Assembly: GCA_031254875.1 (NCBI GenBank)
Contig: JAIRTW010000002.1
Location: 7,899 to 71,898 of the forward strand
DNA length: 64,000 nt
Origin: Candidatus Bathycorpusculum termitum
Lineage (GTDB): Archaea > Thermoproteota > Bathyarchaeia > Bathyarchaeales > Bathycorpusculaceae
Reading direction: 5' to 3'
Shown: piece after piece, positions 7,323 through 15,522 of the stretch
Layout: every line of letters starts with the position of its first letter
How positions within the stretch are numbered: the stretch's first letter is position 1
Made by a program: the position numbers and the translations under genes
The notes under the pieces: generated by a model
Databases searched by the model: none
Told to the model about the DNA's origin: nothing
What the model saw: the letters and a program-made list of their open reading frames with translations, nothing else

Positions 7323-8408
7323 TTAATTTTTTAAAAGCTTTCGGTAGATCAGCCAATATTTCTCTGTCTGTCTTTGCCAGCAATAATTTAAAGCAAGATT
7401 CCGGCATTTAGTGGACATTTCTTTTAGCATTGCATCATCGTTAATAATCTGATCAATTTTTTCCTGATAAACCGTTGGGTTTCCACCCTTAACAACAAAA
7501 CCATGAGTTCCTTCCTTGATTATTTCGCCCAGATTTGATTCCTCTGAGACAATAGCGGGCAGACCGCAGGCCAGGGCTTCTATGGGAACCATCGGAAAGC
7601 CTTCGTAGATAGTTGGAAAAAGCAAAATATCTGCTGCGCTATAAGCAGTAATCAGATCCGGCTCGGATATTTTTCCCAAGAAAATAGTTTTTCCCAAGTT
7701 TTGGCCTGTCATTCCGGCGACTATGAGCTTGGAACATTGTGATTTTTCCACAGCTGTAACTGCTGTTGAGAGTCTTTTTCGATAAGGATTGCTACCCACC
7801 CAGAGGGCGTATGTATTCTGCTCTGGCAACGAAAGTTTTCTTCGAGCCTCTTTTTTATCGAGGGGTATAAATTTTTCCACGTTTACGCCATTGTGAATTA
7901 CTTGGACCTTTTTAGGTGATACGTCATAATATTGGACAAGTTCGTTTTTTACTGCATATGAACATGCGACAGCAATGTCACATTTGGCTGCGGCTATTTT
8001 TTCAGCGTAAAAAAAGGGTTTATCTCGCAGATCTGATCCCTGTAGGGCTTTTGCCATGGTTCCGTGAAAAGTCATCAGAAAAGGGGTTTTATCTCTAAAT
8101 AGTGAGGAAAAAAAGCAGTTATCTCCATGACCATGGATTATATCATAGGGACCATAGGCTTTTGTTTTCCGCCAAGCCTTCAAGTTGTACTCAAATTTCC
8201 CGTAGTGTGGGGGTAGGCCTATTCTGGAATAAGGACGAACTCCAATTATTTTACAGTTATATCCTGACTCCACAAAATCTTTGTTGCTTCGACCAAAAAT
8301 ATTGACAACTACGTTATTATGTTTAATCAAAACGTTACTTAAATCGTTGACTACATTTTCCAATCCCCCAGAAAATTTTGCCAGACCAGAAATCATACAG
8401 ACCTTCAT
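7323..8408 (-). CDS. Glycosyltransferase family 4
   Basis: MKVCMIS..GGLE (ATG 8408 preferred over 8474), IHNGV, YEGFPMVPIEALACGLP. Confidence 0.9.
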   Translation of the reverse strand: MKVCMISGLAKFSGGLENVVNDLSNVLIKHNNVVVNIFGRSNKDFVESGYNCKIIGVRPYSRIGLPPHYGKFEYNLKAWRKTKAYGPYDIIHGHGDNCFFSSLFRDKTPFLMTFHGTMAKALQGSDLRDKPFFYAEKIAAAKCDIAVACSYAVKNELVQYYDVSPKKVQVIHNGVNVEKFIPLDKKEARRKLSLPEQNTYALWVGSNPYRKRLSTAVTAVEKSQCSKLIVAGMTGQNLGKTIFLGKISEPDLITAYSAADILLFPTIYEGFPMVPIEALACGLPAIVSEESNLGEIIKEGTHGFVVKGGNPTVYQEKIDQIINDDAMLKEMSTKCRNLALNYCWQRQTEKYWLIYRKLLKN

Positions 8409-8548
8409 ATTTTTACGCTCCTTGAAATATGATTTTGCGACAGCTTCAGAAGGATTGGACACATAAAAAAACAAAACCGATTAATTATTTAAGTCTTTAG
8501 AAAATGAGCCGCTTTCATTCGGCTCTTCGCATCTCAATTTTTAGCGGT

Positions 8549-9643
8549 TTACTGTAGTATCTTTTTCAAATCTGTAAGCGGCGAATAGTTCAACCCTAAT
8601 TTTTTGTAGATAAGCCACCGTAAGCCTATCAGCTCTGCGAAAACCTTGTCTTTGAACATGCCTATACGAGAGGTATCTTTATGCAGACAAACACCCTTAA
8701 TGTCAGCAATTGTTTCAATTAACAGCAACACTATTCTATTTATTATTGAAAGGTCAGGCTCACTGCCATATAACCTATAGAACAAGAGTCTGTTTTCGGT
8801 GCAGAGAACCGTTCTTTTTTTTGCCTCTTTGATGTTACGTGATAAGGATTGGCCGTGATTTATATGGTAGGCTTTTATCTCTGGATTAAAGATTATGCGA
8901 TACCCTTTTTTCCACAGATACCAACCCAAGTATTGCTCAAATGTTAAGCCAAGAACCCACGCAGTTGGAAATTGAAATCCTGCAGAGGCCTCTGAGGAAA
9001 TAGACATGTTTGCCCCCTTGGCAAGAAGAGAATTCACTGGTTGGCTAAGCGCACTAGCTGCAACTTTATAGTTTACAGAAACAAGTCCCGCTTTTGATAT
9101 ATAGATCAGGTAATCCTCTAACCCCCTCAGAGGGCGATTTACAAGCTTTCGGGCCAAAACATTTTTTGAAACTCTTGTGAGCACGATTTCTGAGGGGGTG
9201 TCTTTGAATTTACAAATTTTGTTCTCTCTCAAAACAACAGGCACAACATCGCCAGCAACCCCCCCTACTTCGGGCACTGAATAGGATAAAAGGTAGGACT
9301 CTATCAGATTAGGAAAGGGAATCGCATCATCATCTAGAAAAACGATGATTTTGCCCTCTGCATTTTTTAATCCAAGATTTAATGCATCTGTAACATAACC
9401 ATGATTTTGTATGATAACTTTTATTTTTAATCTTTCACGATATTTTTCAATTACCTGCTCTGTTCCATCTTCGCTGGGTTTCACTACCATCAATATTTCA
9501 AAATCTTTGTTGGTCTGGGTAGTCAGCGCCTCTAAAACATGACTTAACAGGTTTCCGCGTTTGTATGTAGCGATAATAATTGAAACAGCCGGATTTTCCC
9601 CTTTTTGACGCCGCAATATTGGATTATCCTCAGTTTTAGACAA
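8549..9643 (-). CDS. Glycosyltransferase family 2
   Basis: VSIIIATYKR, ALNLGL..AEGKIIVFLDDD, GANMS. Confidence 0.85.
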   Translation of the reverse strand: MSKTEDNPILRRQKGENPAVSIIIATYKRGNLLSHVLEALTTQTNKDFEILMVVKPSEDGTEQVIEKYRERLKIKVIIQNHGYVTDALNLGLKNAEGKIIVFLDDDAIPFPNLIESYLLSYSVPEVGGVAGDVVPVVLRENKICKFKDTPSEIVLTRVSKNVLARKLVNRPLRGLEDYLIYISKAGLVSVNYKVAASALSQPVNSLLAKGANMSISSEASAGFQFPTAWVLGLTFEQYLGWYLWKKGYRIIFNPEIKAYHINHGQSLSRNIKEAKKRTVLCTENRLLFYRLYGSEPDLSIINRIVLLLIETIADIKGVCLHKDTSRIGMFKDKVFAELIGLRWLIYKKLGLNYSPLTDLKKILQ

Positions 9644-9718: not shown

Positions 9719-9994
9719 TTAGGGGTTAAGTAAAAGTTTAGCTAAAAAATCCATCAGTTCAAGTCGCGATTTAAAGCCTCGAAATATAGCCTTGCCGCTG
9801 GTATAGAGCCGAAAAGAGCTACCCTCAAAAGTTAGCTCGAAGATTATACCTGCGATGGTGTTTTTGAGCTGCGCTTTCTTCATTATGTTGGTGATGGCGT
9901 CGTCTTTTTTTTCGTACTTAAAATTAACTATGACATCACTTTCTGCACCACATGTCCCCTCTATACGCGAAACGTAGTCTGCGACGGTAGACAT
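9719..9994 (-). CDS. Small hypothetical protein, last gene of the Fe-S operon
   Basis: Its ATG overlaps the sufS stop (TAATG). The C-terminal FRLYTSGKAIFRG loosely resembles the C-terminal domain of some ThiF/MoeB proteins. Confidence 0.65.
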   Translation of the reverse strand: MSTVADYVSRIEGTCGAESDVIVNFKYEKKDDAITNIMKKAQLKNTIAGIIFELTFEGSSFRLYTSGKAIFRGFKSRLELMDFLAKLLLNP

Positions 9995-11217
9995 TACTGG
10001 TTGAGTTCCCCCAGGATTTCTATGAAGCGATCGATTTCTTCTTTGGTGTTGTAGATGTAGAAACTTGCTCTAGCAGATGATTGTAACTTGAAAATTTGAT
10101 GCATTGGTTGGGCACAGTGGTAGCCACTGCGCAGGGCAATACCGTATTCGTTAAACATTGCGGCTATTTCATGTGAAGAAAAGCCCCGTATGCTAAAGGG
10201 TATGATTCCGCATTTTTGGGATAGGTCACTTGGTCCATAAATGATAATGTTGTCGTAATCTCTTAGGCGTTCTGTGGCGTATTGGGTTAGTTCTTTTTCG
10301 TGGTTAAACACGTTATCCATACCTAAGTTTTCAAGATAATCTACTGCAGCGCCTAACCCGATTACACCGGCGATGTCGGGTGTACCGGCCTCAAACTTCC
10401 AGGGCAACTCATTCCATGATACGGTGCAGTGGTCTTCGCTAAAAGAGACTTCTTTAATCATCTCGCCTCCACCTTGGAAGGGCGCCATTTTCTGCAGAAT
10501 CTCTTTTTTGCCATACAAAACGCCGATACCTGTGGGACCTAGCATTTTGTGTCCCGAGAACGCCAAAAAATCCACGTCCATGTCTTGTACATCAACCTGC
10601 ATGTGGGGAACTGATTGGGCTCCATCAGCTAGCATCAGAGCGCCGTTATCATGGGCAGTTTTGGCTATGCGCTTAACATCATTTATGACGCCGGTGACAT
10701 TTGAGACGTGACTTAGGCAACAGATTTTTGTTTTTTTGGTGATTTTGTTCTCAAAATCCGCGTAGTCTAATGTGCCGTCTTTGTTGATGTTGGCGTATTT
10801 TACTGTGAACCCACGACATTTGGCAATGATTTCCCATGGCACGATGTTGCTGTGATGCTCCATGAGTGAAACCAGTACTTCATCGCCGCCACCCAGATTG
10901 CTACATCCCAAAGAGTATGCAACCAGGTTGATGGCTTCGGTTGTCCCGCGGGTGAAAATAATTTCGTTTGAGAATTTTGTGTTTATAAATTCGCCGATTC
11001 TTTCTCGGGACTCCTCAAACAGGTCGGTAGCTTCGCTTGAGAGAGTGTGGATTGCACGGTGGATATTGCCGTTATGGCAAGTGTAGTAGTCGGTTATGGC
11101 GTCTATGACTTGACGGGGTTTTTGGCTGGTTGCAGCATTATCAAAATAGATTAATGGGTTACCGTTGATTTGGCGATTTAGAATGGGAAAATCTTGGCGA
11201 ATCGCTTGGATATCCAC
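9994..11217 (-). CDS. sufS: Cysteine desulfurase, group II (SufS)
   Basis: YFDNAATSQKP, MEHHSN, DGAQ, SGHK (PLP Lys), EAGT, RSGYHCAQP (catalytic Cys), ARAS. Confidence 0.95.
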   Translation of the reverse strand: MDIQAIRQDFPILNRQINGNPLIYFDNAATSQKPRQVIDAITDYYTCHNGNIHRAIHTLSSEATDLFEESRERIGEFINTKFSNEIIFTRGTTEAINLVAYSLGCSNLGGGDEVLVSLMEHHSNIVPWEIIAKCRGFTVKYANINKDGTLDYADFENKITKKTKICCLSHVSNVTGVINDVKRIAKTAHDNGALMLADGAQSVPHMQVDVQDMDVDFLAFSGHKMLGPTGIGVLYGKKEILQKMAPFQGGGEMIKEVSFSEDHCTVSWNELPWKFEAGTPDIAGVIGLGAAVDYLENLGMDNVFNHEKELTQYATERLRDYDNIIIYGPSDLSQKCGIIPFSIRGFSSHEIAAMFNEYGIALRSGYHCAQPMHQIFKLQSSARASFYIYNTKEEIDRFIEILGELNQ

Positions 11218-11218
11218 G

Positions 11219-11728
11219 TTACTTTTCGGCCTCAGGTTTTTGCCTCTTTGACAGGGTCTTTGCCAATTCCTCTTCTTCTAGGGCCTGTTTCTCCTCAAAG
11301 GTGAAGTCGTGGGGCAACCAGCATGGAGTTGCTATGCCTTTTTGAGTGAAATATTGACGTATAGCTCGTTTGATCGCGCCAACCGCAAGGACGCCACAGT
11401 GGAATTTTACGCTGGGCAACCCGCCGATTTCTTCGGTAACTTTTTTCCAGGTTATGTCGGTCCATGTCTGCTCCAGCGTTAATCCCTTAATCATCTCTGT
11501 AACTATACTGGATGTGGCGATGTTGGCGGCACAGCCGTAGCTTTCGAACTGGGCTTTCTCGATGGTTTGGTTGGCTTCGTCGATTTTTAGGTAAAAAGTA
11601 ATCATGTCTCCGCATGCAGGGTTACCTGCAACAGCGACAACCGTTGCATCCTCCATTTTGCCAAGATTTTTAGGGTTACGAAATAGATCCATAACTTTTG
11701 GGTTGTAGGGTAATGGTATACGTGACAT
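11219..11728 (-). CDS. iscU: Fe-S cluster scaffold, IscU/NifU type
   Basis: GNPACGD, FESYGCAA, KFHC: three conserved Cys plus Asp and His; no SufU-type insertion. Confidence 0.92.
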   Translation of the reverse strand: MSRIPLPYNPKVMDLFRNPKNLGKMEDATVVAVAGNPACGDMITFYLKIDEANQTIEKAQFESYGCAANIATSSIVTEMIKGLTLEQTWTDITWKKVTEEIGGLPSVKFHCGVLAVGAIKRAIRQYFTQKGIATPCWLPHDFTFEEKQALEEEELAKTLSKRQKPEAEK

Positions 11729-11730
11729 TT

Positions 11731-12954
11731 CTAGTGCACTCCTGTTGAGCCAACTATCCCCCTAATACGATTTACTGCTGTAGGTAGAACACTGAGCACG
11801 TAAGATATATCGTCTTCTGTGTGGTATCGGGTGGTTTTCATAAGGATGCTACCGTGCGCTTCTTCAAAGATACGTCCGATGGCGAGGAGAACGTGACTGG
11901 GCTGGAGCAGTCTGCGGCTACATGCAGAACCACTAGATACATAGACACCACTGAGACTGAGTTCGATAGTCAAGGCTTCGCCTTCCGCACGGAGAATGCT
12001 AATGTTGGCATTGTCGGGGCTACGTTTGTCTCCTTTTGGACCGTTAAACCGCAGGTCGGTGAGTTCATCAAATATGCCATTTGCTAGTTTGTCTCGGAGC
12101 CTGCGCATTTTGGAGGTGTTTGCATCAAAGTTTTCAAACGCCAATTCGGATGCTTTGGTAAAGCCTACAATCAGTGGAGTGTTTTCGATACCGGGCCAGA
12201 GTTTTTGAGTGCCGATGGAACCTTCGATGATTCGTTCGAGGTTTATGCCGTCTTTCACATAGAGGGCACCCATGCCGCGGGGGCCTTGGATTTTGAAGCT
12301 GCTTACCGTTGCCATGTCCACGCCTAAGTTTTGAACATTTAGAGGGATTCGGCCATAGGCATCTGAGGCGTCGGTGTGAAAGAGCGTCTGGGGGTTTTTG
12401 GCTTTGACTATATCAACGGCTTCTTTGATGGGCTGTATGGTGCCGATTTCGCTGTTTATACTGGCAATGCTGACTAGTATGGTTTCATTGTCGATTGCTT
12501 TGTTGAGTTTTTCGAGGTTGATGAAGCCTTCACTGTTCACTGGGATTTTGGTGGTTGAAAATCCAAATTTGCTCATCAGCTCCACTGTTTGCAGAATGTT
12601 GATAGGTTCGATTTCGGATATGACTATTTTTTTGCCTTTATCTTTTTGAAGAAATGCGGCGCCTTGGATGGCGGTGTTGTTGGCTTCGGTTTCTCCGGGA
12701 GTAAATGTGAGTTCTTCGAGGTTTTTGGCACCCATATAGCGGCTGATTTTGCCTGAGGCGTTCATGATGGTTTCAAACGCTTCCCAGCCGGGTTTATGGG
12801 TTAAGGTAGGGTTGCCGTAGGCTTTTTTGTTCCAATATGGCAACATAACTTCGAGGATTTCTTGGGGAACGAAGCTAGAGTTTTCGTTGTCGAGATACAC
12901 CTCGTGGGTGATGTCTTTGTGGAGTTTAAGAAGCTCTTTCACATTTTCAACCAT
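11731..12954 (-). CDS. IscS/NifS-like (group I) protein with degenerate PLP and substrate sites
   Basis: IscS fold motifs (YLDN, INSEIGTIQP, GP.G.GALY, SSGSAC) with many active-site substitutions (see findings). ATG 12954 preferred over 13014. Confidence 0.85.
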   Translation of the reverse strand: MVENVKELLKLHKDITHEVYLDNENSSFVPQEILEVMLPYWNKKAYGNPTLTHKPGWEAFETIMNASGKISRYMGAKNLEELTFTPGETEANNTAIQGAAFLQKDKGKKIVISEIEPINILQTVELMSKFGFSTTKIPVNSEGFINLEKLNKAIDNETILVSIASINSEIGTIQPIKEAVDIVKAKNPQTLFHTDASDAYGRIPLNVQNLGVDMATVSSFKIQGPRGMGALYVKDGINLERIIEGSIGTQKLWPGIENTPLIVGFTKASELAFENFDANTSKMRRLRDKLANGIFDELTDLRFNGPKGDKRSPDNANISILRAEGEALTIELSLSGVYVSSGSACSRRLLQPSHVLLAIGRIFEEAHGSILMKTTRYHTEDDISYVLSVLPTAVNRIRGIVGSTGVH

Positions 12955-13221: not shown

Positions 13222-15522
13222 TTGGCGAATTCCATGAAGATTTCAGATTTAAATGTGCCAGAAAGCGTTAAAGATGTTCTTCAAGCGCAGGGCATTTACG
13301 AGTTGTTTCCGCCTCAGGAGGAATGCATACGTGAGGGTGTACTGGATGGAAGAAACATTTTGCTTGCCAGCCCCACCGCTTCAGGTAAAACCCTTATCGC
13401 AGAACTCTGCGCACTCAAACATGTACTAGAAGGCGGCGGTAAAGTTATTTACCTCTGTCCCCTCCGGGCCCTTGCCAGCGAGAAATTTGAGGAATTCAAA
13501 AAATACACAGACATCCAAAAACCAGACGGAGGTAAAGTCTCTGTTGGAATCAGCACCGGCGACTTTGATACCGCCGACAACTGGTTGTCCCGCTATGATA
13601 TAATTGTCACTACCAACGAAAAGGCCGATTCATTGCTTCGACACCGTGCCAAGTGGATGGACAGCATCTCGGCAGTAATCACTGACGAAGTGCATCTGCT
13701 AAATGAAGCCGAACGCGGTCCCACCTTGGAGATTGTGCTGGCACGGCTGATGCAGTGCAATCCCAACATCCAAATTCTCGCCCTATCTGCAACCATAAAC
13801 AACGTGGATGAAATCGCAGGGTGGCTTAACGCTAAACACATAATCACAAACTGGCGCCCCATCAATCTCAAAGAAGGCGTAATTCTCCAAGATGAAATCC
13901 AGTATCGCGACGGTGAAAGCCGCAAAATCGAGCAGGAAACCCGCTTCACATTCATCAACATGGTTCTAAACACCCTGCGTAACGGTGGTCAAGCCTTGAT
14001 TTTCGCTTCTACTCGCAAAAACGCCGTTTCCGCTGCAAAACAAGTTGCCAGTCACATGGATAGAATACTTGTACCCAAATCCGGTTCAAAAATAGTCAAA
14101 AAGAGTCTTGAAGAGCAAACTAGGGGAGGGCTTGAGAAGGAGGCACATAAGATCTTAGATGCAGGAGAACGGACACCGATGGGGGATGAACTTGCTGATT
14201 TGGTGCGCTGTGGAGTTGCCTATCACCATGCGGGCTTGTCCGGTACTCAGCGGACGATTATCGAACAGGCCTTTAAAGACCGTAAAATCAAGGTTTTAAC
14301 TGCGACGCCGACGCTGGCTTGGGGGGTTAACTTGCCTGCGCGGACAGTTATCATCCAAGACTACCGCCGCTTCGAAGCGGGTTTAGGCAACTATCCGATC
14401 CCTGTTTTAGACTACAAACAAATGGCAGGCCGAGCGGGCAGACCCAAATATGACAAGTTCGGTGAATCCGTCATCATAGCGAAAACCGCCGACGAATCAG
14501 ACTATCTCATGGAAAGCTACGTCCTAGCCAAACCCGAGCGAATTTGGTCGCGGCTTGCCGTGGAGAAAATTATCCGTACTCATGTCCTCTCCACCATCGC
14601 CAGTGATTATGCCCATACTGAGGAGGGTATCTATGCGTTTTTCCGCAAAACTTTCTATGCCTACCAATACGACGTTAAAGCCATCCAAAATGTCATCGCC
14701 AAAATCCTCCGCTTTTTGCATGATGAAGAAATGATATGTGTGGTTGGCAATGACATAATAGCCACAAAGCTGGGCAAGCGAATAAGCGAGCTCTACATTG
14801 ATCCGCTAAGCGGTATAATCATCCGTGATGCATTGCAAACTAAGCCGCCGTTACTCGCGGAGTTTAGCCTTCTTCAGCTCATCGCGCACACCCCCGATAT
14901 GGGACCGGTTATGAGGCCATATCAACGGGAAATGGAAAAGCTTGCCGTCACCGCCGAAGACCACCGGCAAGAGTTGTTTGTGGAAATTCCTGATCAGTGG
15001 AGTGACCAAATCGGATATGCTGATTTCCTTGGAGAAGTTAAAACGGCGATGGTGCTCAACAATTGGATAGAAGAGTTATCTGAAGAGAAACTTATGGAGC
15101 GCTTTAATGTGCAACCTGGCGATCTCTACCGTACCATTGAAAGCGCTAAGTGGCTTCTTCATGCCGTCGAAAAACTCGCGCCCATAGTTACTGCCAAAAA
15201 CAATGATGTAACCGCTCTCAGTAATGAGCTTGTTGAGCGGGTGTCAAAGGGTATAAAGCGGGAGCTGATGCCGATTGTCGCCTTGGAGGGCGTAGGCAGA
15301 GTCCGTGGACGTATAATCTTTAACGCCGGTTTCCAAACCATGGATGACCTCAAGCACGCCTCAATCGAGGAACTTACCACATTGCCGTCGGTGGGCCCAC
15401 GCTTAGCCAAAAAAATCAAGGAGCAGGTCGGCGGCTATGTCAAAAAAGACGAGTGGGAAAGCCTCTCAACCGCCGCCAAAGCACCCCAAGAAACCCAACA
15501 GAAAGGACTCTTTGAGTTCTAA
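13222..15522 (+). CDS. hel308: Hel308/Hjm Ski2-like DNA helicase
   Basis: PTASGKT, DEVH, LSAT, AYHHAGL, ATPTLAWGVNLP, QMAGRAGRP; C-terminal HhH; terminal QKGLFEF PIP-like motif. Confidence 0.95.
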   Translation: MANSMKISDLNVPESVKDVLQAQGIYELFPPQEECIREGVLDGRNILLASPTASGKTLIAELCALKHVLEGGGKVIYLCPLRALASEKFEEFKKYTDIQKPDGGKVSVGISTGDFDTADNWLSRYDIIVTTNEKADSLLRHRAKWMDSISAVITDEVHLLNEAERGPTLEIVLARLMQCNPNIQILALSATINNVDEIAGWLNAKHIITNWRPINLKEGVILQDEIQYRDGESRKIEQETRFTFINMVLNTLRNGGQALIFASTRKNAVSAAKQVASHMDRILVPKSGSKIVKKSLEEQTRGGLEKEAHKILDAGERTPMGDELADLVRCGVAYHHAGLSGTQRTIIEQAFKDRKIKVLTATPTLAWGVNLPARTVIIQDYRRFEAGLGNYPIPVLDYKQMAGRAGRPKYDKFGESVIIAKTADESDYLMESYVLAKPERIWSRLAVEKIIRTHVLSTIASDYAHTEEGIYAFFRKTFYAYQYDVKAIQNVIAKILRFLHDEEMICVVGNDIIATKLGKRISELYIDPLSGIIIRDALQTKPPLLAEFSLLQLIAHTPDMGPVMRPYQREMEKLAVTAEDHRQELFVEIPDQWSDQIGYADFLGEVKTAMVLNNWIEELSEEKLMERFNVQPGDLYRTIESAKWLLHAVEKLAPIVTAKNNDVTALSNELVERVSKGIKRELMPIVALEGVGRVRGRIIFNAGFQTMDDLKHASIEELTTLPSVGPRLAKKIKEQVGGYVKKDEWESLSTAAKAPQETQQKGLFEF

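Follow-up and report, generated by a model that had tools for sequence, protein, structure and literature searches.

A Bathyarchaeial iron–sulfur operon combining a predicted non-catalytic IscS-like protein and an IscU-type scaffold with a canonical SufS and a small single-cysteine protein

Operon layout

The stretch examined was a 64-kb window (the whole length of DNA analysed) of contig JAIRTW010000002.1 from Candidatus Bathycorpusculum termitum. It carries a minus-strand operon at positions 9719–12954, in which four closely packed, head-to-tail genes encode an IscS-like protein, an IscU-type scaffold, the cysteine desulfurase SufS and the product of a 91-residue open reading frame (ORF). 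The IscS-like protein, hereafter MisS*, belongs to a group of Bathyarchaeial homologues termed clade A. Its gene is separated from that of IscU by 2 nt, the IscU and SufS genes are 1 nt apart, SufS and the small ORF share a TAATG stop/start overlap, and a T-run follows the stop codon of the small ORF at the end of the operon. The MisS* start codon at 12954 agrees with the length of 407-residue homologues. The coordinates of the genes and of selected codons are provided in Table 1.

Table 1. Features of the operon in the 64-kb window. Residue equivalences in brackets refer to E. coli IscS; PLP, pyridoxal 5'-phosphate; dN/dS, ratio of non-synonymous to synonymous substitution rates; AF2, AlphaFold2.
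Feature	Position	Strand	Evidence
MisS*, predicted IscS/MisS-like pseudo-desulfurase of clade A, 407 aa	11731..12954	-	PF00266, 174 bits; residue mapping; dN/dS 0.04–0.17
Cys345 codon (C328), SSGSAC loop	11920..11922	-	Invariant in 29 clade genomes
Lys221 codon (K206, Schiff-base Lys), kept	12292..12294	-	Invariant in clade; adjoins F220 (H205F)
Pro117 codon (H104P), PLP-stacking and acid–base His replaced	12604..12606	-	Pro invariant in clade A; His kept in sister clade B
Leu371 codon (R354L), substrate alpha-carboxylate Arg replaced	11842..11844	-	Leu invariant in clades A and B; also Leu in A. fulgidus IscS2
WPGI segment (R240W, T243I), partner-subunit contacts replaced	12187..12198	-	Clades A and B: Trp invariant, Val/Ile fixed
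IscU-type scaffold, 169 aa; MSRIPLPY at the N terminus and an extension at the C terminus	11219..11728	-	PF01592, 134 bits
IscU C-terminal extension, residues 131–169, motif P.WLP...T.EEK.ALEEE.L	11222..11338	-	Conserved in clades A and B
SufS, canonical type II cysteine desulfurase, 407 aa	9994..11217	-	TIGR01979, 580.8 bits vs cut-off 475.1
Small protein with one Cys, 91 aa; a strand and Cys-Gly loop precede a probable single TBP-like domain	9719..9994	-	AF2 model; weak fold matches
Cys15 codon of the small protein	9950..9952	-	Cys15-Gly16 the sole invariant columns in 29 genomes

Remodelled active site of MisS*

The PF00266 match assigns MisS* to the class V aminotransferase fold with homology to IscS/NifS. 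The protein nevertheless scores well under all NifS/IscS equivalog cut-offs (TIGR03402, 360 vs 530.75; TIGR02006, 290 vs 643; NF010611, 288 vs 548). The solved structures nearest to it are cysteine desulfurases (PDB 9WER, 284 bits; PDB 4R5F, 277 bits). The best solved canonical relatives, PDB 9WEP–9WFY, are 406-residue entries labelled "cysteine desulfurase" that differ among themselves at a few active-site positions and so look like a variant series.

Residues were mapped onto E. coli IscS (iscS from NC_000913), whose landmark residue identities were verified, and the window codons were checked. This mapping recovered all six motif changes that a preliminary description of the locus had listed for the IscS-like protein, together with the retained loop cysteine. 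Relative to the reference, MisS* differs by A11N, T12S, T13S, A75E, H104P, N155S, Q183D, H205F, R240W, T243I and R354L, and it keeps T76, D180, S203, K206 and C328. Of 16 mapped positions that serve PLP or substrate, ten are altered. In MisS* numbering, K221 and D195 are present, and the equivalents of H104, Q183, H205 and T243 are P117, D198, F220 and I256, respectively, each of them fixed within the clade. An alignment artefact was rejected on the basis of 144 sequences, comprising E. coli IscS, the query and the 142 nearest full-length representatives of 50%-identity clusters from a 1.8-billion-protein library. Most representatives are canonical in these columns, and at least 120 of the 144 sequences carry the canonical residue at the positions altered in MisS* (His104 in 136, Arg240 in 135, Arg354 in 131, Thr243 in 128 and Gln183 in 124). 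At the retained positions, the counts are 131 for Lys206 and 142 for Cys328.

By the roles established for these residues in E. coli IscS and SufS, His104 (IscS numbering) stacks on PLP and acts in acid–base catalysis, and Gln183 contacts O3'. The cofactor phosphate of IscS is contacted by Thr76, Ser203, His205 and Thr243, the last from the partner subunit, and Arg354 anchors the substrate carboxylate. Judged by the E. coli IscS structure, the new carboxylates E88 and D198 of MisS* would stand where the PLP phosphate and O3' would otherwise bind. The combination of a proline at the stacking site, a leucine for the arginine, two hydrophobic residues at phosphate contacts and these two carboxylates is expected to hinder PLP binding and to prevent cysteine from binding in the usual way. 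MisS* would consequently no longer be a cysteine desulfurase, and most likely binds neither cysteine nor PLP in a productive manner.

The altered pattern is conserved. Across 29 clade-A genomes, no variation occurs at P117, D198, W253 and L371, and conservation reaches at least 90% at N25, S26 and E88. The former PLP/substrate pocket has been remade with fixed Pro, Phe/Tyr, Trp, Ile/Val and Leu residues and the two new carboxylates. The most conserved stretch of the protein is the segment S340–H354 around Cys345, nearly all of which is invariant in the same genomes. Pairwise dN/dS values of MisS* (Table 1) are indistinguishable from those of IscU (0.03–0.13) and SufS (0.03–0.12), and conservation at the protein level between the same genomes is higher for MisS* than for SufS. 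A decaying pseudogene was rejected, since 29 genomes have an intact reading frame and dN/dS does not exceed 0.17. At the sequence level, MisS* thus appears as a conserved remodelling under strong purifying selection, and the fixed replacements argue for a pocket that would be plugged to gain stability or else put to use for a different ligand. The earlier proposal that the IscS paralog is a pseudo-enzyme is thereby supported in silico: residues for PLP and substrate are lost, their replacements are fixed, and the cysteine loop is the best-conserved element.

Distribution and clades in Bathyarchaeia

Close homologues of MisS* (82–90% identity) are plentiful in Bathyarchaeia assemblies. Two proteins that are 83–84% identical to it, P0019 and P0040, carry the NCBI labels "Deferrimicrobiaceae bacterium" and "Betaproteobacteria bacterium", respectively; all other such homologues are from Bathyarchaeia, and these two are likely mis-binned contigs.

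Within a sample of 151 Bathyarchaeia genomes, MisS*-like matches form the discrete groups A, B, C1 and C2 (Table 2). The best PDB match of clade C1 is A. fulgidus IscS2 (PDB 4EB5, 499 bits). The two C2 loci (L053 and L055, genomes G010 and G002) have the gene order HTH_3 regulator, SufS, IscS and IscU, followed by a 318–335-residue protein with 10–11 cysteines and no Pfam family, and then by a protein of ~700 residues with an ATP-cone-like start.

Table 2. Groups of MisS*-like proteins among the sampled Bathyarchaeia.
Clade	Identity to MisS*	Active-site pattern	Neighbours
A (~35 genomes)	>=59%	Full altered pattern	Long IscU, SufS, small Cys protein
B	47–54%	His104, His205, Lys206 kept; Q183D, R240W, T243V, R354L common with A	Long IscU, tusA, dsrE
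C1	40–44%	K206D, H205N, R354L/M	Short IscU, tusA, dsrE
C2	41–43%	Lys and Arg kept; H104N	IscU, SufS

Phylogenetic relationships were estimated with a quick IQ-TREE run, in which deep nodes are weak and which is unrooted except for a long SufS outgroup. Clades A and B were grouped (SH-like approximate likelihood ratio test, 96) inside a supported group with C2 (97), apart from a clade comprising C1 and P0256 (98). Because A+B and C1 fall in separate clades, catalytic residues would have been lost at least twice within Bathyarchaeia.

IscU-type scaffold

The second gene encodes an IscU-type scaffold, as had been proposed for the operon. The ligands C39, D41, C66, H110 and C111 are all kept, and the protein remains below the equivalog cut-offs of TIGR01999 (105.7 vs 192.4) and TIGR03419 (135.8 vs 187.9). 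Its identification as SufU was rejected, given that His110 is kept, the SufU insertion is absent and the SufU model scores 60.6 vs a cut-off of 92.5 over a partial match. In clade loci, the IscU gene is always next to that of the IscS-like protein.

An N-terminal MSRxPLPY sequence and a C-terminal extension of ~40 residues are found only in the IscU proteins of clades A and B, the extension being absent from clade C and E. coli. In the AF2 model, the extension consists of a well-placed linker and a helix spanning residues 144–163, with a predicted local distance difference test (pLDDT) score of ~90 up to residue 150. It has apparently co-evolved with MisS* of clades A and B. A complex prediction for MisS*, IscU and the small protein, in which the latter was the partner, yielded a score of 0.14 vs a mark of 0.32, which weighs neither way.

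SufS and the alternative sulfur modules

The operon SufS was described initially as fully canonical, and it agrees with E. coli SufS at all 11 sites checked (H123, N175, D200, Q203, S223, H225, K226, T278, R359, C364 and R379). Fourteen orthologues are likewise canonical at all 11 catalytic and PLP positions. Among solved structures, the best match is to B. subtilis SufS (485 bits), of which the His342 equivalent is kept. Direct transfer of sulfur from SufS to IscU is conceivable because SufS resembles the B. subtilis enzyme, whose acceptor SufU has the IscU fold.

SufS is present in every clade-A genome except one and adjoins the MisS*–IscU genes in ~30 of ~35 genomes, in three gene orders: MisS*–IscU–SufS–small gene; SufS–MisS*–IscU–small gene; and MisS*–IscU–small gene convergent with SufS. 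The neighbourhood differs in the sister groups. Directly upstream of IscS–IscU, tusA (PF01206) and dsrE/DrsE_2 (PF13686/PF02635) occur at 10 of 10 clade-B loci (L037–L046), and among the clade-C1 loci (L047–L052, L054 and L056) tusA precedes the inactive IscS in 8/8 and dsrE in 7/8. Neither tusA nor dsrE was found in any of the 47 locus records of clade A, nor at the two C2 loci, which carry SufS.

This distribution suggests that a core of dead IscS and IscU draws on either of two alternative sulfur modules, that of clade A being SufS plus the single-Cys protein, and that the sulfur-supply module was exchanged between sister clades. The role of sulfur donor assigned earlier to SufS thus gains in silico support from its canonical residues, its adjoining position in most clade-A genomes and its placement where sister clades carry tusA/dsrE.

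In a phylogenetic tree of SufS, from which row G048 was disregarded as it rests on a wrong ORF, the operon copies of families f1 and f17 form one clade (96), matching their MisS* genes. The remaining operon copies are interspersed with non-operon Bathyarchaeial SufS.

Small single-cysteine protein

Scans of the small protein against Pfam and NCBIfam returned no family above cut-off. Sub-threshold profile matches were to DUF3378 in 20 of 27 members (best E-value 0.004) and to the TATA-binding protein (TBP) in 15 of 27 (best E-value 0.0015). No match to PF01206 (TusA) or PF02657 (SufE) was found even at E-values of up to 10, and its likeness to TusA- and SufE-type carriers is functional alone, consisting of small size, one invariant loop cysteine and operon position.

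The AF2 model (pLDDT 91.5) displays a beta-alpha-beta4-alpha core after an extra strand. Folds were compared using Foldseek against the PDB and a wide VIA-align search. The matches were weak, namely Z 5.5–5.6 for TBP, with a best overall Z of 6.0, and Foldseek probabilities of 0.85–0.92 for the N-terminal domain of RNase H3; Foldseek E-values were at least 0.075 throughout. The protein probably adopts a TBP-like fold, according to this model. TusA, SufE and frataxin were absent among the fold matches listed, although such a likeness is not thereby excluded.

Among orthologues from 29 genomes that share 23–85% identity, Cys15 and Gly16 alone never vary, and they lie in the least confident loop of the model (mean pLDDT 76 for block 11–20). 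Strong matches (E-value of at most 1e-28) were found in 33 of 151 genomes, all of them clade-A, where the gene invariably lies within the operon or next to it. A search for fused or longer forms found none, which is weak evidence. The small protein is probably new, and its restriction to clade-A genomes, its constant place in the operon and its invariant Cys-Gly pair lend in silico support to the accessory role that had been suggested for the fourth gene.

Iron–sulfur machinery of the genome and operon surroundings

The assembly is 93% complete with 2.5% contamination. SufB/D had no match in the genome, although the same search was positive in 14 of 14 control organisms, and no SufC was found above cut-off (best 83 vs 213 bits). 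Likewise, no match in the genome was obtained for SufE (PF02657) or for an A-type carrier (PF01521); HscA and HscB were not searched for. The genome contains a single NifU_N domain, which is that of the operon IscU, no further IscS-type gene was found in it, and it carries two Mrp/ApbC-like genes. Hence, the operon is probably the sole de novo Fe–S assembly system of this genome. Of the 151 sampled Bathyarchaeia, 50 had a SufB match; among the 5 further genomes sampled from the same genus, 1 had it.

The DsrE–TusA pair of this genome, located on another contig and considered below, sits between a gene for an M48 peptidase and an 88-residue ORF without an assigned family, and has no linkage to Fe–S genes. 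The operon itself is flanked by a divergent 766-residue ORF at 13222–15522 on the plus strand and by two downstream ORFs within 7323–9643 on the minus strand. By eye, and without a family-library scan, these flanking ORFs resemble a Hel308/Ski2-type helicase and glycosyltransferases, and no Fe–S-related gene was recognised among them. The stretch was matched in one sequencing run, of termite-gut metagenome DNA that may be the source sample; no RNA run was listed.

Relationship to known systems

The closest parallel is A. fulgidus IscS2–IscU (PDB 4EB5, 4EB7 and 4HVK; D199K variant, 4R5F), with which the operon has in common a type I IscS fold devoid of desulfurase residues, a retained mobile-loop cysteine and a gene position beside IscU. 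A. fulgidus IscS carries Asp199 instead of the lysine, has no desulfurase activity and supplies a cysteine that ligates the [2Fe-2S] cluster on IscU (PMC8918507, PMC7585200, PMC13066941). IscS2 binds pyridoxamine 5'-phosphate (PMP) despite the missing lysine (PMC8918507), and M. acetivorans IscS1 is another IscS that lacks it (PMC7585200).

The preliminary description had cited this precedent correctly as regards the absent activity and the cysteine ligand, but its attribution of the inactivation to the lysine alone has to be amended. When PDB 4EB5 was aligned to the protein at L048:3983-5173:+, the A. fulgidus sequence was found to read Asp for the lysine, Asn at His205 and Leu at Arg354. Both inactive types therefore share the Arg-to-Leu change, together with a QPSHVL...EEAHG segment. 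The lesions are otherwise different: A. fulgidus IscS2 has lost the lysine and kept His104, whereas MisS* has kept the lysine and lost His104, Gln183, Arg240 and Thr243. In the tree, the A. fulgidus-like Bathyarchaeial clade C1 (K206D) is separate from the MisS* clade A+B. A. fulgidus-type loci in Bathyarchaeia carry tusA and dsrE, in contrast to the SufS, small Cys protein and extended IscU of the MisS* locus.

A second relative is the minimal iron–sulfur (MIS) system MisS–MisU (Garcia et al. 2022, summarised in PMC13066941), which likewise has adjoining IscS-like and IscU-like genes in an anaerobic archaeon and no HscAB-type or A-type genes in the operon. MIS is the least studied system according to a 2026 review and can use sulfide (PMC13066941). 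It is described as two genes with a cysteine desulfurase (PMC13066941), whereas here MisS is predicted to be non-catalytic and two extra conserved genes are present.

The B. subtilis SufS–SufU pair (PDB 5XT5 and 5J8Q) resembles the operon in that a type II SufS gene stands beside that of an IscU-fold protein, with no SufE. Unlike SufU, however, the operon IscU keeps His110 and is devoid of the SufU insertion, and no SufBCD scaffold was found to receive the sulfur.

Finally, the tusA–dsrE–iscS(inactive)–iscU operons of Bathyarchaeial clades B and C1 combine a core of dead IscS and IscU with small Cys-bearing genes for sulfur handling. Clade B is the direct sister of clade A, with which it has Q183D, R240W, T243V, R354L and the IscU extension in common. 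Clade A differs from B and C1 in the additional loss of His104 and His205 and in the presence of SufS and the TBP-like Cys protein instead of upstream TusA/DsrE, and genomes of B and C1 are usually without SufS. The literature search, outside of which fell the primary MIS/SMS paper, found no description of a SufS-linked dead-IscS variant or of the small protein.

Proposed mechanism and alternative explanations

We propose, with a probability of roughly 0.6, that the operon encodes a hybrid Fe–S assembly system in which non-catalytic MisS* partners IscU, canonical SufS mobilises sulfur and the small protein is a possible relay. From the residue pattern, conservation, gene linkage and co-distribution observed above, we infer that MisS* would have lost its activity and would act as a structural partner of the IscU-type scaffold. 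Its mobile loop would bring Cys345 to the IscU assembly site, where it may serve as fourth cluster ligand and/or persulfide relay, as in A. fulgidus IscS2–IscU. Sulfur would be freed from L-cysteine by the adjacent type II SufS and would reach the MisS*–IscU complex either directly or via the 91-residue protein with its Cys-Gly loop. In clade A, SufS and the small protein would thereby occupy the operon position of the TusA and DsrE persulfide carriers in sister clades, and the Mrp/ApbC-type proteins would be the likely downstream cluster carriers.

A more specific version of this proposal is tentative, and we deem it possible rather than probable. It envisages an undescribed, self-sufficient Fe–S system, in which SufS would feed a MIS-type scaffold via a new persulfide (or iron) carrier, built from a single TBP-fold domain and a Cys-Gly loop, that replaces TusA/DsrE. 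The former PLP pocket, with carboxylates D195, D198 and E88 plus Lys and Tyr/Phe, might then be re-used to bind the carrier, the IscU extension or a metal.

Several observations weigh against the hybrid system. The metagenome-assembled genome is 93% complete, which renders the absences provisional. A stand-alone DsrE–TusA pair is encoded on another contig (G000:C51:10233-10809; L097/L098). In one genus (G077 and G136), SufS stands elsewhere and alone, while MisS*, IscU and the small gene stay linked, and no SufS was found in G006. In clade B, which carries the majority of these substitutions, SufS is missing from most genomes. SufS may additionally serve thiolation pathways. Lastly, Lys221, Asp195, Ser218 and Thr89 of MisS* are kept and invariant, and MisS* may on this account, above all through Lys221 and Asp195, still bind PLP or PMP to some extent.

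The clade-B pattern also bears on the order of events. Because the majority of these substitutions occur in clade B in the absence of SufS, the latter could not, as judged from these sequences, have set off the decay of the IscS site in the first place; this decay therefore predates or is independent of the SufS linkage. By the same token, a dead IscS would not need SufS in order to function, and sulfide or sulfur brought by a carrier could also suffice here.

The best-placed alternative takes SufS as a mere neighbour that provides persulfide for tRNA thiolation, thiamine or molybdopterin, with MisS*–IscU using sulfide or sulfur from the stand-alone TusA/DsrE, as is presumably the case in A. 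fulgidus and in clade B, which lacks SufS. That clade B and C1 systems operate without SufS is consistent with it, as are the DsrE–TusA pair of the same genome, the unlinked or missing SufS genes just mentioned and the mixing of clade-A operon SufS genes with non-operon copies in the tree. Yet the linkage persists in each of three gene arrangements, the genes being 1 nt apart or overlapping, and no clade-A locus having SufS carries tusA or dsrE. Moreover, the genome lacks a SufE or SufU partner for SufS other than the operon IscU, and the SufS genes of f1 and f17 form one clade, as do their MisS* genes. We thus consider this explanation rather unlikely.

Less probable still is that MisS* remains an enzyme with altered chemistry, which would hold PLP or PMP via Lys221 and Asp195 and act on a different substrate, for instance one lacking an alpha-carboxylate, or else a protein-bound persulfide or thiocarboxylate, the pocket being a new active site. 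The invariance of Lys221, Asp195, Ser218 and Thr89 and the fixed replacements, which fit a selected pocket, would be in line with this, and A. fulgidus IscS2 still holds PMP (PMC8918507). Against it, the stacking and acid–base histidine is a proline, the carboxylates E88 and D198 would lie at the phosphate and O3' sites, as placed from the E. coli IscS structure, and the phosphate contacts His205 and Thr243 are now hydrophobic. We also know of no fold-type-I PLP enzyme that functions without both the stacking residue and the arginine.

That the small protein might instead be a nucleic-acid-binding regulator of the operon with a single TBP-like domain, rather than a handler of sulfur or iron, is hinted at by the sub-threshold TBP and RNase HIII N-domain matches, the weak structural similarity to TBP and RNase H3, and an Atlas neighbour cluster that is a family of single TBP-domain proteins, but it is improbable given that its sole invariant residues are the Cys-Gly pair, which lies on a flexible loop and not within the TBP-like core, that its gene is the last and translationally coupled one of the operon, that strong matches are confined to clade-A genomes with MisS*, and that fold matches with Z of at most 6 are too weak to carry a function.

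Implications

The source of sulfur for Fe–S clusters in anaerobic archaea and the role of "inactive" IscS paralogs are an open question of the MIS/SMS field. The hybrid system proposed here would amount to a natural experiment on it, as a single monophyletic group of dead-IscS proteins has one branch with TusA/DsrE and the other with a canonical SufS and a new one-cysteine protein. This module is the only assembly machinery detected in several genomes that are nearly complete. The pseudo-enzyme role, the sulfur route and the accessory protein are all directly testable with four small genes. The findings further call for caution with the annotation "cysteine desulfurase", which database names give to these widespread Bathyarchaeial genes.

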